This document shows positions 3,445-14,510 of a DNA stretch of 64,000 nt, one piece after another (positions within the stretch are counted from its first letter, which is position 1; every line of letters starts with the position of its first letter). The notes under the pieces were generated by a model. It worked only from the letters and a program-made list of their open reading frames with translations. It did not search any database and was not told where the DNA came from. The DNA comes from a virus, in UHGV virus genome UHGV-0117634; one strand, given 5' to 3'. A program made the position numbers and the translations under genes.

Positions 3445-3909
3445 TTAACCTAGAACTTTAGCAAGCACATTTGCAGCCATTGTTGAGGCTTTAGCAGCAG
3501 CGTTAACCCCAGATTTAATGGTGCTGTCCTTGATAGCTGATACCGTTGCAGCATCAGTAAACAGATAAGTGGTAGTCTTTTCACCACTTGTGAAGGAAAG
3601 CATAAGAGCAGTTTCCAGATTGAAGGAACGGTATGGTGCTCCCTGTTTTACAATCCCTGCTGCACCAAGTTCTGAAGCCATACCCATATCATAGATGGTC
3701 ATCAGATTTTCTTTGTGAGCAGTTGTAGAACCAACACCTTTAACGTGTTTAGAAACATTCAGCAGAGCACGATACTCACGAATCTCTCCGTCAGCTTTGA
3801 CGTTTACTGCTCGGAAGATTTTACCTTCAAAGTTGTCTTTGATGATACGACGAACAACTTCAGATTTGTTTCCGGTTGCATCGATAGCTACTGTTATAAT
3901 ATTTTGCAT
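3445..3909 (-). CDS. hypothetical protein (154 aa)
   Basis: ORF-track ORF with GAGAGAG-containing leader and its own terminator. Confidence 0.5.
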   Translation of the reverse strand: MQNIITVAIDATGNKSEVVRRIIKDNFEGKIFRAVNVKADGEIREYRALLNVSKHVKGVGSTTAHKENLMTIYDMGMASELGAAGIVKQGAPYRSFNLETALMLSFTSGEKTTTYLFTDAATVSAIKDSTIKSGVNAAAKASTMAANVLAKVLG

Positions 3910-3920
3910 GGTTTTCTCTC

Positions 3921-4616
3921 TCAGTTTTTAACTAACATTGTTTTAATGTGTGGAAGGATTCTTTCGACCTTTGCCACGTTCTTTACTGTATCTTCTATAA
4001 AGCATACTACATCATAGTAAGGTAGAATGCAAGACTGAAGCATACGAACTTTCAAACTTTCTGCACTAATCTCATTGTCACCAAATCCACGCATAAACAG
4101 TAAGAAATCACTGTCTACATTTTCATTCAGGAAGAGATGAGTGACCACTCTCTGTGATTCACCACGAGCAGTTAAGAATCCTATATCAGCATTTTGTGAT
4201 ATCCCACACAGGATGTTAAAAACATAAGTTGGTTTAGCTCTGCGAGAGTCCACCAAGTTAGTGTACTGTGAGTAAGTACCATCATCTAACAGAGTTGCAT
4301 TAAGTTTCTTATCAAAACTTGTAAGAACACCATCAATATCTGCTAAGACCATTTTACGTTTTTCTTCCAAGTTCTTTGCAACCAAGATAAGACTATTACG
4401 ACCCACATATACAGTCTTACCTGTTAGCAAATCTTGACAAGGAATCTGTGTCTTTGTTGAATGAAAGTCTTCAAAGCTACATGCAACACATCTTGCTGTA
4501 TCTGCAAAGTCAGCTTTAGCAACGTCTGACCAGCTTGCATAACTGATATCTAAATCAAGTGGTTTGATATCATAAGCATGACACAGAACCGTATCAAATT
4601 GTTTTGATTCGCTCAT
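3921..4616 (-). CDS. HAD-like phosphatase-domain protein (putative nucleotidase), N-terminal region unknown
   Basis: LADIDGVLT matches HAD motif I (DxDG[TV]); later GFGDNE resembles motif IV. Confidence 0.35.
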   Translation of the reverse strand: MSESKQFDTVLCHAYDIKPLDLDISYASWSDVAKADFADTARCVACSFEDFHSTKTQIPCQDLLTGKTVYVGRNSLILVAKNLEEKRKMVLADIDGVLTSFDKKLNATLLDDGTYSQYTNLVDSRRAKPTYVFNILCGISQNADIGFLTARGESQRVVTHLFLNENVDSDFLLFMRGFGDNEISAESLKVRMLQSCILPYYDVVCFIEDTVKNVAKVERILPHIKTMLVKN

Positions 4617-9604: not shown

Positions 9605-9627
9605 AAAAAGGCTCCCGTAGGAGCCTC
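9605..9627 (-). terminator. rho-independent terminator after NAMPT-family gene
   Basis: Plus AAAAAGGCTCCCGTAGGAGCC; stem GGCTCC/GGAGCC, tetraloop, T-run on minus strand. Confidence 0.6.
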
Positions 9628-9640
9628 TTATCATACTATT

Positions 9641-11458
9641 TTACAGTTGCTTGTCAATAACTTTTCGTACATCACGAAGGTTAACGTAACCATATGGTTG
9701 TGAGTCACAGAAGACAAGCTTCAAAGCACACTGAGGGTTGTCAATGACACCTTCAAACTCTGCAAATCCTAAGCCATCTACAGCTTCCAGCTTATCACCA
9801 TCCCACATAGGAATGACACCACCAAAAGCAGATTTCTTAAGACCACTATCTGTTTTAGGGTCTTTAGCCAGCATGATTTCTTTACCATCCATCTGTGCAA
9901 GAGTTGCTTTAACAGCAAATGCAAAGGTATCGCGAGTCAAGTACTGATAAGTGTATGAACCTACACCAAACACTACGTTAGAACTTGCAAAACCCTTATC
10001 AGCAAGACGTGACAGGATATCATTAGCTCTTTCCAGAGTGATAGAATCACCGTAGATTAATCCAATGTGCTCATCCAGTACTTTGTACCCTTTGGAGTTA
10101 ACAGTGCCACCAAAGATGTTATACAGCGTGTGGATAGCCCCATCAATCTCTGCTGTCAGCATACGCTTCACAGTAAACTGTCCAGTTTTCTGAGCGGTAA
10201 TCAGGTTGATTGTATCAGCAGATTCAAAATCTTCCTTATCAACAACCATCTCATAACCTTCAGAGATTAGCCAAGCAGAGAACCCAAAGCCAATATCAGA
10301 CATTTCACAATTCAAGATTGTGTCATGCAGATGTGTATTGTTCGGTGCAAGCTCTTTCATGTGCTTGTAGAACATTGACTTAGCAGTTTCCCACTCAATG
10401 GCTTTGTAACCAGTAACAATGTGAACAGGGTCTCCAGAGTCTGGACGGATTACCAACTTACCATCACGATTCAGAATCACATTACGTAGCTCTGGTAAAA
10501 TCTGTGTAACAGTTCTCCAGAAGTTGTAAGTATCTGATACAACACTTGCAATACCAGTTGGGTAGACTTCTGTCAGAAGACGTTGGAAAGTTTCTACCTC
10601 ACCACGCCAACGCATTGCATCTAACAAGTTGTCAGACTGTAGCAGATGCCAATCACTTACTTCTTTTGCACAACTATTCCATGAGATGTTTGCACACATC
10701 ACAGAGTGTTCAGTTGCTGGTACAGAGTTCCCGATATCACTTACAGTCATAAACTGACCATATGCACGTTTAGCTGTGTATACAGCAGGGAAGCTGTCAG
10801 TACCTTTAAAACTTGTCAGGTGACCTACTGCGTTAAACGCATCATCTGTGAATCCAGACATACCACGCATTGCAAAGTCATGACACTGCCAAGGAAGATG
10901 GAAGTCGTTATCACAGGTCAAATCTGACCACTTCTTACAAATACGTTTGTAATGTAGTGCAATAGTTGCAATTGTACAAGCTTTCCAGATTTCAGCAGAG
11001 AAAGCATCTTCGAGATAACCAGCTACCCAATGGAAGCCCTCTACAGTGTTTTTGAATATAATCATCGGGACACGCATAGGGACAATTGTACCTTCCTCTA
11101 CAGAGTAGACTTCAACAGGCAGATAACCTAAGTCATGAAGTTCTTCCCAATGTTGGCGACCAATAGCATCTGCACCAAGAACACCATTCATGATTTCCAA
11201 GATTTCGTCAATGGCTTCTTTCTTATCGCGTTCAAAGAACGTTGCATTCCAGTGGTCTACCAGATAGTCTTTTACAAAACGCTGAATACCAAATGCTACA
11301 ACACCATCAATTTCTAATGGAGAGTTAAACCATTTGTCTCCACGAGGTGTTAAGTTCAGCATAAGATACTGAGTAGCATCTGGATACTGGTAGATATGAC
11401 CAGCTTTGTAAGCATCTGCGTTAAGTCCTGCTGGTACTGCATAGATTGATTTAGTCAT
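9641..11458 (-). CDS. nadV: nicotinamide phosphoribosyltransferase-family protein (NAMPT/NadV-like; candidate Namat of an NAD+ reconstitution pathway)
   Basis: Clear NAMPT motifs: DAYKAGHIYQYP, FAMRGMSGF...SFKGTDS, SVPATEHS, VVSDTYNFW, IRPDSGDP, IYGDS, FGVGSY...LTRD. Confidence 0.9.
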   Translation of the reverse strand: MTKSIYAVPAGLNADAYKAGHIYQYPDATQYLMLNLTPRGDKWFNSPLEIDGVVAFGIQRFVKDYLVDHWNATFFERDKKEAIDEILEIMNGVLGADAIGRQHWEELHDLGYLPVEVYSVEEGTIVPMRVPMIIFKNTVEGFHWVAGYLEDAFSAEIWKACTIATIALHYKRICKKWSDLTCDNDFHLPWQCHDFAMRGMSGFTDDAFNAVGHLTSFKGTDSFPAVYTAKRAYGQFMTVSDIGNSVPATEHSVMCANISWNSCAKEVSDWHLLQSDNLLDAMRWRGEVETFQRLLTEVYPTGIASVVSDTYNFWRTVTQILPELRNVILNRDGKLVIRPDSGDPVHIVTGYKAIEWETAKSMFYKHMKELAPNNTHLHDTILNCEMSDIGFGFSAWLISEGYEMVVDKEDFESADTINLITAQKTGQFTVKRMLTAEIDGAIHTLYNIFGGTVNSKGYKVLDEHIGLIYGDSITLERANDILSRLADKGFASSNVVFGVGSYTYQYLTRDTFAFAVKATLAQMDGKEIMLAKDPKTDSGLKKSAFGGVIPMWDGDKLEAVDGLGFAEFEGVIDNPQCALKLVFCDSQPYGYVNLRDVRKVIDKQL

Positions 11459-11502: not shown

Positions 11503-12402
11503 TTATTCAATATTTACTACAGTCACTTGTGAGAAGTGTGAAAGTCCACGCCATTTAGCACTTCCTAATGAATCTGTAGTGTAGATATGGTCAATACCGT
11601 TGTCAAGAAGATTTTCAACACCTTTAGAGAAAATCCCATGAGTGACATATAGTTCTACATGTTCTGCACCAGCTTCACGAAGATACTTTGCAGCCTCAAT
11701 GAAGGTACGACCACCGTCACAGATATCATCCAGAATCATGACAGTCTTACCTGTTAAGTCTACATCATCAAGGATTCGCATACCAGTTATTTCACCAGTT
11801 TTTAGGTTGCGTACCTTAGCCATTGTGATATATGGCTTTTCAACATCCTTAGCAGCTTCTTCTGTCTTCTTAGCTGCACCTGCATCTGGAGCCACTAAGT
11901 AATCAATTCGTGGGTCACTTGCAAAGTGTGATGCAACGGCTTTTTGTGGAACATTATAGAAGCACTTGAACAAATTTTCTGCTACGTTGCTGTGAACATC
12001 CAGAGCACATACAGAATCAAATTCCATAGCATTTACCAGATTGGCAAACACTTTCAATGCTGCTGCATCTCCTTTAAACATGTGTCGGTCATATCTTGCA
12101 TTTGGTAAGAAACCAAATAACACTGACTTCATTGTTGTTTGTTGAGGTATAAGGTTGTCAATTGCTTCTTTAGCCAAAGCTAATGCAAATAAGGTGTCTT
12201 TGTCATAACCTTGTACCGTGAAGATTACGTTTTCAATTTTTCCAGCAGCATGTTTAGCAAAATCTACTAAGTCTTCTGAAAAGTTACCACCAATTTCCCC
12301 TGAAGGGAACTGAATAATGTTGAAGGTCTCTTGGTGTGAACCTTTTGAATTTGAATTAAGCAGAACTTGAATAGTAGTTTCCATAGTATTTCTCTCAGTC
12401 AA
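11503..12402 (-). CDS. ribose-phosphate pyrophosphokinase (PRPP synthetase)-family protein (candidate Adps)
   Basis: PRTase-type binding loop VMILDDICDGGRTF and overall Prs-like layout; immediately upstream of the NAMPT-family gene. Confidence 0.8.
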   Translation of the reverse strand: MTERNTMETTIQVLLNSNSKGSHQETFNIIQFPSGEIGGNFSEDLVDFAKHAAGKIENVIFTVQGYDKDTLFALALAKEAIDNLIPQQTTMKSVLFGFLPNARYDRHMFKGDAAALKVFANLVNAMEFDSVCALDVHSNVAENLFKCFYNVPQKAVASHFASDPRIDYLVAPDAGAAKKTEEAAKDVEKPYITMAKVRNLKTGEITGMRILDDVDLTGKTVMILDDICDGGRTFIEAAKYLREAGAEHVELYVTHGIFSKGVENLLDNGIDHIYTTDSLGSAKWRGLSHFSQVTVVNIE

Positions 12403-12421
12403 AAGTTACGTTTGTAAATTA

Positions 12422-12871
12422 TTATTCCCAAATAATTTTCTTTCTTTTTAATTTAATGATGTTCTTTTTACAATACTCAACTGCCTCATCCATTGTATCA
12501 AACATCATCTCACCAATAAAGTACTTAACATTTGGGTTTTGCTCTTGTATTATTTGGATTTCTGTAGTTTTTACTTGGTCTTTTACACCAGTAACCAGTC
12601 TTGCTAGTCGTGGTTCATTTTCCATAAATGGTTTGCTTAACTGGTTGATATAAAGAACTCCACCATTTTTGCTACCATGCTTGACAGTCACGAGAACCCC
12701 AACTTTACGCAACGCTGATAAGTAATACCTTGAATTAGCTATCGGCATTTTCTTAAGATAATCACAATTACTTCTTAGAGCTTTCACCGCTTCATTGGAA
12801 TCAAATTCCTTATCAGTCCCGAACTTTTCGTGTAGTATCTCAACAAGCGTTACATAAAATGAGCTAATCAT
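12422..12871 (-). CDS. hypothetical protein, tandem paralog B (149 aa)
   Basis: Same length as and about 45% identical to 12898..13347 (shared EIL..KFGT..FDSNEA...YL.ALR..GVL.TV and C-terminal YFI...MF.T..EAVE.CKK.IIK.KR.KIIWE). Confidence 0.6.
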   Translation of the reverse strand: MISSFYVTLVEILHEKFGTDKEFDSNEAVKALRSNCDYLKKMPIANSRYYLSALRKVGVLVTVKHGSKNGGVLYINQLSKPFMENEPRLARLVTGVKDQVKTTEIQIIQEQNPNVKYFIGEMMFDTMDEAVEYCKKNIIKLKRKKIIWE

Positions 12872-12897
12872 AACTTTGTCTCTTTAGCTAGTGTAAA

Positions 12898-13347
12898 TTA
12901 TTCCCAAATAATCTTTGCACGTTTAATCTTAATGATGTGTTTTTTGCAATGCTCAACAGCCTCTTCTAAGGTATTAAACATCGCACTTTCAATAAAGTAC
13001 CTTACGTCAGGGTCTGTGTCAACAATTTTGTTCTCATCTTTATTTTTAGGTTCTTCATGTGATTCATCCAATAATGGTGATAGCTGGATGTGCTTTTCCA
13101 TGAAGGATTTATTTAACTGGTTAATGCTCAGTCTACCTTTACTTTTTATCTGGCCTACAGTCATTAGTACACCAGTTTGTCGTAATGCTGTCAAGTAACC
13201 ACGAGCATTATTAATTGATTGACCTCTAATGTATAGGCTTTTCTTTCGAAGTACATCAATAGCCTCATTAGAATCAAATGTCCCCTCTGTTCCAAACTCT
13301 TTATACAAAATTTCTATTACATGTTTTTGTAAATTACAAAAAATCAT
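12898..13347 (-). CDS. hypothetical protein, tandem paralog A (149 aa)
   Basis: Paralog of 12422..12871; conserved GTAACTTTTGACTGAGAGAAA leader upstream. Confidence 0.6.
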   Translation of the reverse strand: MIFCNLQKHVIEILYKEFGTEGTFDSNEAIDVLRKKSLYIRGQSINNARGYLTALRQTGVLMTVGQIKSKGRLSINQLNKSFMEKHIQLSPLLDESHEEPKNKDENKIVDTDPDVRYFIESAMFNTLEEAVEHCKKHIIKIKRAKIIWE

Positions 13348-13358
13348 AATATTTTCTC

Positions 13359-13652
13359 TCAGTCAAAAGTTACAAATGTTACAGCCATAGCTGTTTTACA
13401 TTTCTTTGGGTCTACAGTGTGATAAATAACTAAACAGTTACCTGTTCCATCTGGTACTGGTTTTGTCCAAGTACGTTCAATATTTGGCTCTCCAAATTCT
13501 TTATAGAATCCGTTGGAGTAGTGGTCAATCATCTCAATAGCAAGTGCATCTGGGACGTGACCACGTATCATATACATCTCACTACCGTTTCCAGCTTCAC
13601 TAATAAGTTCTTTGATATCCCATTGTTCTCTAGACATGATAAGTTGCCTCAT
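13359..13652 (-). CDS. hypothetical protein (97 aa)
   Basis: ORF-track ORF. Confidence 0.4.
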   Translation of the reverse strand: MRQLIMSREQWDIKELISEAGNGSEMYMIRGHVPDALAIEMIDHYSNGFYKEFGEPNIERTWTKPVPDGTGNCLVIYHTVDPKKCKTAMAVTFVTFD

Positions 13653-14145
13653 AAACTTCCCTAAACTTCAACAAGAGAGATATTGCCAGAACTGCATAGC
13701 TCCTGTCAAGCATTGGTGGCATATTATTTTTAAGATATGCTTTCTGTTCTTCCCAAGTCATCTTAGGAGTCTCAGGAAGTTTCTCACCTTGCTTCTGATT
13801 ATCTTCTTGTGTCTGGATAAACCAGTTTGAGCAATGGTGCTCTCCACCTTTTGTCACAGGCTTATGGTGGCCTAATGTGAAAGCTTTCTTTCCAGAATAT
13901 CTACAAAGCTTATTAAGGGTTGCAATAGTGTTCTTGACAACGCAGTATTCATAGAGGTTGTCAATAGTGTAATGAGGGTAGTACTGGAACAAGGCACTAT
14001 CACGGAACTTACCACGATTCCAAAGCACCATGTGATTAGAATTTGAAGGGTCATACTTATGTGACTCGATGAACTCTTGACGCTCATCAAAATCAAGACG
14101 AAGAACAGACATTGCAGCAGCACGTTTCATATTTGAATGGTACAT
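13630..14145 (-). CDS. hypothetical protein with possible HNH-like nuclease motif
   Basis: LGHHKPVTKGGEHHCSNW resembles the HH..P..GG....N HNH core; weak. Confidence 0.35.
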   Translation of the reverse strand: MYHSNMKRAAAMSVLRLDFDERQEFIESHKYDPSNSNHMVLWNRGKFRDSALFQYYPHYTIDNLYEYCVVKNTIATLNKLCRYSGKKAFTLGHHKPVTKGGEHHCSNWFIQTQEDNQKQGEKLPETPKMTWEEQKAYLKNNMPPMLDRSYAVLAISLLLKFREVYEATYHV

Positions 14146-14164: not shown

Positions 14165-14186
14165 AGGGAACCTTTTACAGTTCCCT
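14165..14186 (-). terminator. rho-independent terminator
   Basis: Plus AAAAAGGGAACCTTTTACAGTTCCCT; stem AGGGAAC/GTTCCCT, T-run on minus strand. Confidence 0.5.
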
Positions 14187-14198
14187 AATCATATACGT

Positions 14199-14510
14199 TT
14201 ACTGAGCTATTTTCAAGACTTTTAAGAAACCTCCCTCACCAATTGCATCATAAACGTTTTCAGTTGGCTTGATAAGGTTGTTCAAGCATACAATTTTCTT
14301 ACGCTTCTTGTCATAAGTAAGCTTCAGTTGTTTCAACTCTTTGTCATCTTCAGGGTGCTCGTTGTACATCTTCACAGCTTCTTTAAAGCTAATGTAGCCA
14401 CCACCTAAAGTAAGGAAACCTGTACCACAATAGTGGGAGTTGTGTTTATCAGCCATAAACTGGCACAGGATAGAAATCTGAATTTTACGAGTGTTATAAA
14501 TCTTTTCCAT
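14199..14510 (-). CDS. hypothetical protein (103 aa)
   Basis: ORF-track ORF; AAGGATTATTAAAATG leader. Confidence 0.45.
   Translation of the reverse strand: MEKIYNTRKIQISILCQFMADKHNSHYCGTGFLTLGGGYISFKEAVKMYNEHPEDDKELKQLKLTYDKKRKKIVCLNNLIKPTENVYDAIGEGGFLKVLKIAQ

Follow-up and report, generated by a model that had tools for sequence, protein, structure and literature searches.

Regulators of the helix-turn-helix (HTH) class often accompany anti-defence operons, the Aca proteins being classical HTH repressors that adjoin acr genes and have operators in the promoter. In the hyperplastic regions of T4-type phages, optional ORFan cassettes are reportedly flanked by repeated regulatory motifs (PeSL). 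The Prs-like/NAMPT-like gene pair of Felixounavirus Bas63 constitutes the experimentally defined NARP1 pathway, a two-gene operon in which Adps makes ADP-ribose (ADPR)-pyrophosphate and Namat converts this product to nicotinamide adenine dinucleotide (NAD+), thereby countering NAD+-depleting defences (bioRxiv 10.1101/2024.02.11.579819). Here, we examined a tandem pair of genes, designated A and B, in the viral genome UHGV-0117634 (the whole 64,000-nucleotide stretch that was analyzed is referred to as the window). An earlier note, made from the sequence alone, had placed the pair just upstream of Prs-like and NAMPT-like genes, and this position, in the sense of transcription, was confirmed by the gene order. 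By megablast, the region was nearest to Mooglevirus phages of the Ounavirinae, including Citrobacter phage BSwM KMM2 (93%), Mordin, and Shigella phage Henu11, and the window derives from a Mooglevirus-like member of this subfamily of Felix O1-like myoviruses. The A and B genes were found to form an optional cassette of old paralogues that are maintained by purifying selection at a fixed site in front of the NARP1 homologues and that probably encode small nucleic-acid-binding proteins.

The A/B genes resemble Aca-type regulators in that they encode small proteins of the HTH class (as judged by predicted structure) within a predicted operon that also includes anti-defence genes; however, they are positioned upstream, occur in two to four paralogous copies, are optional and have no identified operator. 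As with the T4-type ORFan cassettes, which are likewise said to comprise dispensable early genes at a fixed site with short repeated expression signals and to vary among relatives, the A/B cassette is flanked by a repeat; yet this repeat (21 to 37 nt) consists of the tail of the upstream gene and a ribosome-binding site instead of a promoter-stem-loop, and the cargo is a paralogue array of a single family. NARP1 directly follows the cassette on the same strand, and no terminator-like site lies between them; nevertheless, the cassette is not part of NARP1, since the published operon has two genes and most phages with NARP1 are without the cassette (241 of 257 related records, or about 94%, had Prs/NAMPT homologues and an empty site). 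PHROG 29478 is the same family as A and B and is of unknown function. The sequences were already present in GenBank as hypothetical proteins and had been grouped as PHROG 29478. What is new is how the proteins are built from domains, where the cassette begins and ends, its 0/2/4 copy-number polymorphism, how old the paralogues are and the link to the NARP1 operon; the PHROG entry is without functional or structural annotation and does not hold the architecture, the copy-number polymorphism or the cassette boundaries.

Comparison of the two encoded proteins revealed that A and B are real paralogues, with a similarity far above chance. The earlier note had described two consecutive 149-aa open reading frames (ORFs) about 45% identical over their full length; by BLASTP, the proteins displayed 48% identity and 70% positives over 141 of the 149 aa with one gap (E = 3e-36), and global alignment gave an identity of 46 to 47%. 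A spurious alignment, the concern raised in that note, was ruled out by this E-value. Both proteins match PHROG 29478 from end to end (E 1.9e-82 for A and 3.8e-84 for B; 149 of 150 profile positions). The near-identical basic C-terminus that had also been pointed out was evident as well (...EAVE[HY]CKK.IIK.KR.KIIWE), with 67% identity over the last 36 residues compared with 47% over the N-terminal 80 residues and 26% in the linker. No third copy was detected elsewhere in the 64-kb window. The ORFs of the family were unbroken in all 14 carrier phages, with all 28 genes examined being intact. Since the ORFs are intact in the 14 carriers and the ratio of nonsynonymous to synonymous substitution rates (dN/dS) among orthologues ranges from 0.05 to 0.28, we conclude that A and B are real genes.

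The two genes occupy a 964-bp cassette whose position is constant, between the 92-aa gene and adps (prs-like), and which has a perfect 21-nt direct repeat on either side (Table 1); by our own arithmetic, the chance expectation for such a repeat within 3.2 kb is about 1e-6. The repeat is made up of the end of the upstream 92/97-aa gene (its final codons and stop) and the ribosome-binding site of B. It was found to be longer in Henu11 and Mordin (about 36 to 37 nt, with the ATG included), while the duplicated portion in Pr103Blw and finno was the ribosome-binding site plus ATG only. The empty sites of Sf13 and Felix O1 had exactly one copy of the junction. With this geometry, a recombination event between the two repeat copies would excise the cassette exactly, and adps would still be correctly positioned behind its ribosome-binding site. 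Overall, 16 of the 257 flank-matching phage records were found to carry the family and the other 241 to have an empty site, with a matched span of approximately 1,018 to 1,039 nt compared with the 2,001-nt query, i.e., 964 nt shorter.

The copy number of the genes was also found to differ among the carriers. The two-gene array of the window was detected in four phages, (i) KMM2, Mordin, and Henu11 of Mooglevirus; and (ii) Pr103Blw of Felixounavirus. A four-gene array, which looks like a duplication of a long-plus-short gene pair, was detected in ten Felixounavirus phages (e.g., finno, fBSPA4, Seyj1-1, RPN213, and CECAV_041). The 28 genes examined fell into five clades, and the enterobacterial Ounavirinae carriers always had arrays of two or four diverged paralogues, never fewer. 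The comparison across related phages that the earlier note had proposed thus returned copy numbers of 0, 2, or 4 at one site, and its description of the pair as accessory genes held, in that the family is polymorphic for presence or absence at a fixed locus between conserved genes. In fBSPA4 (L008 1108-1608), a single 166-aa gene was observed in place of the 171-aa and 92-aa genes, while the four-gene array was intact; the array is therefore independent of these two genes, and plasticity extends over the entire stretch upstream of adps.

Divergence analysis revealed that the duplication is not recent, as the tandem duplication and divergence proposed in the earlier note might have implied. The synonymous divergence (dS) between A and B was saturated (2.9 overall, and infinite when calculated for the N-terminal domain), and the dN/dS was 0.15, with the linker near neutral at 0.76. 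Each copy was found to have a separate orthologue in Pr103Blw, a phage of the other genus, with 77% aa identity for B and 58% for A, and the cassette has diverged from that of Pr103Blw (72% nucleotide identity) to a similar extent as the flanking genes (74 to 75%). Based on the separate orthologues and the flank-like divergence, both paralogues probably predate the split between Mooglevirus and Felixounavirus. The dN/dS values among orthologues were 0.05 to 0.12 for the B type and 0.19 to 0.28 for the A type, and the A orthologues were 89 to 90% identical in KMM2, Mordin, and Henu11. Thus, A and B are functional and under purifying selection, with A the faster-evolving copy; no sign was detected of diversifying selection, which the host-range or immunity selection envisaged in the earlier note might have implied. 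Within Mooglevirus, the flanks of the carriers were no closer to the window than those of the non-carrier Sf13, and Henu11 was mosaic. The patchy distribution can be accounted for by repeated losses, in combination with recombination, at least as readily as by a recent gain. Gene conversion was considered as a source of the conserved 3′ ends and was rejected, as the paralogues within a genome were no more alike in this region than those between genomes.

Table 1. Coordinates of the A/B cassette and associated features in the window of UHGV-0117634
Feature	Position	Strand	Details
Paralogue B (upstream copy)	12898..13347	minus	149-aa ORF
Paralogue A (downstream copy)	12422..12871	minus	149-aa ORF; architecture as in B
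B-A spacer, 26 nt	12872..12897	minus	Holds the ribosome-binding site of A, AAAGAGACAAAGTT before ATG; read directly
Direct repeat copy 1, 21 nt	13353..13373		TTTCTCTCAGTCAAAAGTTAC on the plus strand; 100% identity between copies; repeat scan
Direct repeat copy 2, 21 nt	12389..12409		Just upstream of the adps/prs ATG (12384); repeat scan; spacing 964 nt
Prs-like gene (Adps homologue)	11503..12384	minus	TIGR01251 E 2e-36; PDB Prs matches; homologous to Felixounavirus Prs-family gene
NAMPT-like gene (Namat homologue)	9641..11458	minus	Best PDB matches 9W5W and 9W5X, E 1e-124
92/97-aa gene	13359..13652	minus	PHROG 4726, function unknown; second copy of its 3′ end present beyond the cassette
171-aa gene	13630..14145	minus	PHROG 3500; first gene of the predicted transcription unit
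Terminator-like hairpin	14165..14186	minus	Closes the preceding unit; consensus scan; terminator annotated there in the Mordin record
Terminator-like hairpin	9606..9629	minus	After the Namat gene; consensus scan; predicted unit end

Structural modeling was performed with AlphaFold2 on a 16-sequence alignment of the family. A winged helix was predicted with confidence for residues ~5 to 75 (H1, b1, H2, H3, and a beta-hairpin wing; predicted local distance difference test [pLDDT] scores of 83 to 86), in support of the suggestion in the earlier note that the N-terminal half may adopt this fold; the predicted three-helix bundle, with a wing hairpin after the recognition helix, places the domain in the winged-helix superfamily. 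The predicted domain is followed by a helix (residues 77 to 93), an acidic disordered linker (~94 to 113, with pLDDT < 50 over residues 95 to 110) and a tail (residues 114 to 149) of a beta-hairpin (117 to 124) and a helix (127 to 144) that ends in KIIWE in B. This beta-beta-alpha C-terminus was predicted in the full-length model and also when the tail was modeled alone. The calculated isoelectric point was 9.5 to 9.8 for the N-terminal domain and 4.6 to 5.0 for the linker, and the tail was basic. Based on sequence conservation, the tail is the most conserved and family-defining part: it always ends in WE, it is constant across the five clades and the distant member P0018 (described below), and its invariant residues are F118, F124, A130, C134, I139, K142, W148, and E149. 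Taken together, these features suggest that A and B are probably nucleic-acid-binding, small winged-helix proteins.

A BFVD fold search retrieved only family members and generic winged helices. Compared with Fur/PerR (5nl9), MecI (1okr), MarR (5h3r), and STIV F93 (2co5), the A and B proteins were only 6 to 14% identical and gave no profile matches. Unlike such generic winged-helix proteins, A and B are without a metal-sensing or known dimerization domain and instead carry the acidic linker and the basic 36-residue beta-beta-alpha tail ending in WE. No zinc ligands or HNH catalytic residues were found in the C-terminal module, and assignment of this module as an HNH/beta-beta-alpha-Me nuclease was rejected, with His133 replaced by Tyr in A-type copies. 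A weak local likeness to AbiEi (Pfam AbiEi_4) was detected at residues 47 to 66 in 2 of the 16 members (E 0.24); at 12 bits, compared with a gathering score of 25, and with no match to the C-terminal part of AbiEi, this result was taken as a likeness of fold class only. An arrangement of AbiEi with an AbiEii toxin gene was likewise rejected, as the cassette lies between the 92-aa gene of PHROG 4726 and the Prs-like gene and is not adjoined by a nucleotidyltransferase gene. The fixed differences specific to each paralogue are scattered and not focused in the recognition helix; therefore, we do not propose that the two copies differ in DNA specificity.

The A/B family is restricted to the Felix O1-like phages (Ounavirinae), as judged from the sequence collections searched. 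Single-query and profile searches with A, B, and the 16 family members against Pfam, NCBIfam, PADLOC, and the PDB sequences returned sub-threshold noise only; homology to a well-characterized family, which the earlier note had wished to see checked, was thus not detected in these databases. A word-index search with a profile of only the C-terminal part gave no matches. A search for literature on the A/B genes likewise found nothing. Among 50,697 phage records, the family was present in 16, even at E <= 1, and every carrier belonged to the Ounavirinae. No relatives were found in the IMG/VR scan or in the GTDB set of 185,579 genomes of bacterial and archaeal species, and metagenomes (241 million records) had two family loci, one of them a further four-gene array. 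The family forms 17 clusters at 90% identity among 5.8 billion proteins. An exhaustive hidden Markov model search of 1.84 billion representatives gave five matches: three of the family, P0018, and P0019. Of these, P0019 (a 1152-aa repeat protein) was rejected as a homologue, as its six matches are short and resemble a beta-beta-alpha pattern arising by chance. By contrast to the arrays, P0018 is a distant member of 125 aa encoded in single copy on a divergent Ounavirinae-like contig (Logan SRR31815898_117897; L003 8001-8378); it shares the C-terminal module, while its N-terminal half has no detectable sequence similarity to the family. The P0018 gene is located in an early locus, between PNKP-like and WYL_2-like genes and ~2 kb upstream of a Macro-domain gene; this locus represents another possible conflict-gene cluster, with NARP1 not adjoining.

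The relationship of the cassette to the NARP1 genes was examined at the level of gene order and predicted transcription. The order nrdD - nrdG - small genes - 171 aa - 92/97 aa - B - A - Prs-like - NAMPT-like - 111 aa - rIIA corresponds to the conserved early region of the Ounavirinae. Entries 9W5W and 9W5X, the best PDB matches of the NAMPT-like protein, are crystal structures of SpbetaL1 Namat (PMC12774641). The start of the adps homologue was placed at ATG 12384 and not at TTG 12402, which gives a gene of 882 nt as in relatives. A consensus scan of the coding strand found no terminator-like site between positions 14165 and 9629; since none separates the cassette from the NARP1 genes, co-transcription of the two is predicted, in a unit of 171aa-92aa-B-A-Adps-Namat. 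With NARP1 adjoining and rIIA further downstream, the cassette thus lies in a neighbourhood of conflict genes. Bas63 was not among the 16 family-holding records, and the Bas63 record itself was not located. In the KMM2 record (L004 3467-4347), the adps homologue is annotated as two abutting coding sequences (3467-3955 and 3955-4347), which points to a frameshift, or else to an error of sequencing, in the NARP1 gene of this phage.

Based on these findings, our preferred reading, which we hold with slightly less than even confidence, is that the cassette encodes dispensable early accessory factors that bind nucleic acid and have their target in the host, in its defences or in rival phages. According to this model, A and B would be expressed early together with NARP1, and the basic winged helix would bind nucleic acid or a nucleic-acid-like surface. 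The conserved beta-beta-alpha/WE tail may mediate self- or hetero-association, or docking on a constant partner; a role in association would fit with the enterobacterial carriers always holding at least two paralogues. Because near-identical phages do without the cassette, its products would presumably act on the host, host defences or a competing phage and not in the core programme of the phage. The cassette would be lost precisely when the repeats recombine with each other, and it would be passed between co-infecting relatives through homologous recombination in the conserved flanks. More specifically, the arrays could represent a new counter-defence class, in which hetero-oligomers formed via the WE module silence a component of host immunity and so provide a second layer of protection beside NARP1. 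We consider this narrower proposal unlikely; within a given defence system, conceivable targets would be its sensor, its operator or its DNA or RNA ligand, and the system could be one of those that deplete NAD+ and are also countered by NARP1.

Alternative explanations were also weighed. A and B could be phage-intrinsic transcription regulators, such as Aca-like autoregulators that tune their own operon including NARP1. Their winged-helix fold and basic surface, their location in the predicted transcription unit of Adps/Namat and the frequent attachment of HTH regulators to anti-defence operons would all be consistent with this role; however, about 94% of the relatives, some of them ~93% identical in the flanks, run the operon without A/B, and two to four diverged paralogues exceed the needs of an autoregulator. 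In addition, no conserved palindrome or operator was found near the A/B genes, the sole palindrome (at the 5′ end of B) not being conserved in orthologues, and P0018 is not beside NARP1; such a regulatory function is thus considered unlikely. It is somewhat less probable still that the winged helix binds protein, with the paralogues serving as stoichiometric inhibitors or decoys of host defence proteins (e.g., as mimics of AbiEi-type antitoxins). The AbiEi matches on which such a role could be modeled are far below curated cut-offs and confined to the generic recognition helix, both the C-terminal domain of AbiEi and an AbiEii partner are missing, and the basic character of the N-terminal domain is more suggestive of nucleic-acid binding.

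The cassette could instead encode weapons of inter-phage competition, or superinfection-exclusion factors that bind the DNA or early proteins of relatives without it. The restriction of the family to one phage subfamily, the position of the cassette beside the conflict genes NARP1 and rII and its presence or absence in phages that share a host and even a sample are in agreement with this idea; for example, KMM2 has the cassette and KMM4 does not, both being BSwM isolates according to the abstract of one preprint. The carrier frequency of 6% is, however, low for an effective exclusion weapon, and purifying selection and old age would suit any function, and we regard this explanation as improbable. 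Least probable, and in our view very unlikely, is that the cassette is a selfish or neutral passenger, i.e., DNA-binding remnants of elements of the homing-endonuclease type with no benefit to the phage. Though HNH-like genes are nearby (the 171-aa ORF and a DUF7390 gene annotated as a homing endonuclease), the bracketing repeats delimit a clean indel and the C-terminal beta-beta-alpha topology is one that occurs in HNH cores, the neighbouring HNH-like genes are equally present in non-carriers. No sequence or significant fold similarity to nucleases was found, and the polar residues that are invariant in the tail are limited to C134, K142, and E149, none of them a His, Asn, or Asp. That both genes are under clear purifying selection in different genera, with no pseudogene in any of the 14 phages, argues for a selected function and against a passenger.

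Several observations count against an accessory or counter-defence role as well. No homology was found that ties A/B to any function, with no characterized protein or known inhibitor matched; the adjacency of the cassette to NARP1 may be incidental, as most relatives have NARP1 alone and P0018 is encoded elsewhere; the prediction of co-transcription is based solely on a simple consensus scan; and purifying selection acting on old paralogues is not the usual signature of an arms race. Nonetheless, the cassette is a reasonable, though ordinary, candidate for an accessory or counter-defence module. If this role is correct, an uncharacterized, subfamily-specific family would join the known accessory nucleic-acid-binding proteins of phages, and the site upstream of NARP1 would be a place at which Felix O1-like phages exchange optional early genes; these phages are in wide use for the biocontrol of Salmonella and E. 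coli. The natural 0/2/4-copy polymorphism among otherwise near-identical phages provides a ready-made experiment on the role of these genes.

Additional features were observed in the vicinity of the cassette. The 26-nt spacer between B and A was conserved in KMM2, Mordin, and Henu11. A near-perfect palindrome (TTTTTGTAA-T-TTACAAAAA, positions 13315-13351) overlaps the first codons of B; it was rejected as an operator or RNA hairpin, being identical in the Mooglevirus carriers and broken in the Felixounavirus orthologues, and so is probably due to chance. No tRNA genes were detected in the 64-kb window, and Rfam gave no matches at gathering thresholds. The 171-aa ORF was weakly HNH-like (PHROG 2214, E 2e-5; IscB HNH region, E 6e-4), and a 103-aa ORF of DUF7390 (14199-14510, minus strand) is annotated as a 'putative HNH homing endonuclease' in relatives; both of these genes occur in cassette carriers and non-carriers alike. 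Upstream of the 171-aa gene, a promoter-like sequence (TTGAAA-17-TATGAT, 14216-14188, minus strand) was identified immediately before the hairpin at 14186-14165, an odd order of promoter followed by hairpin.

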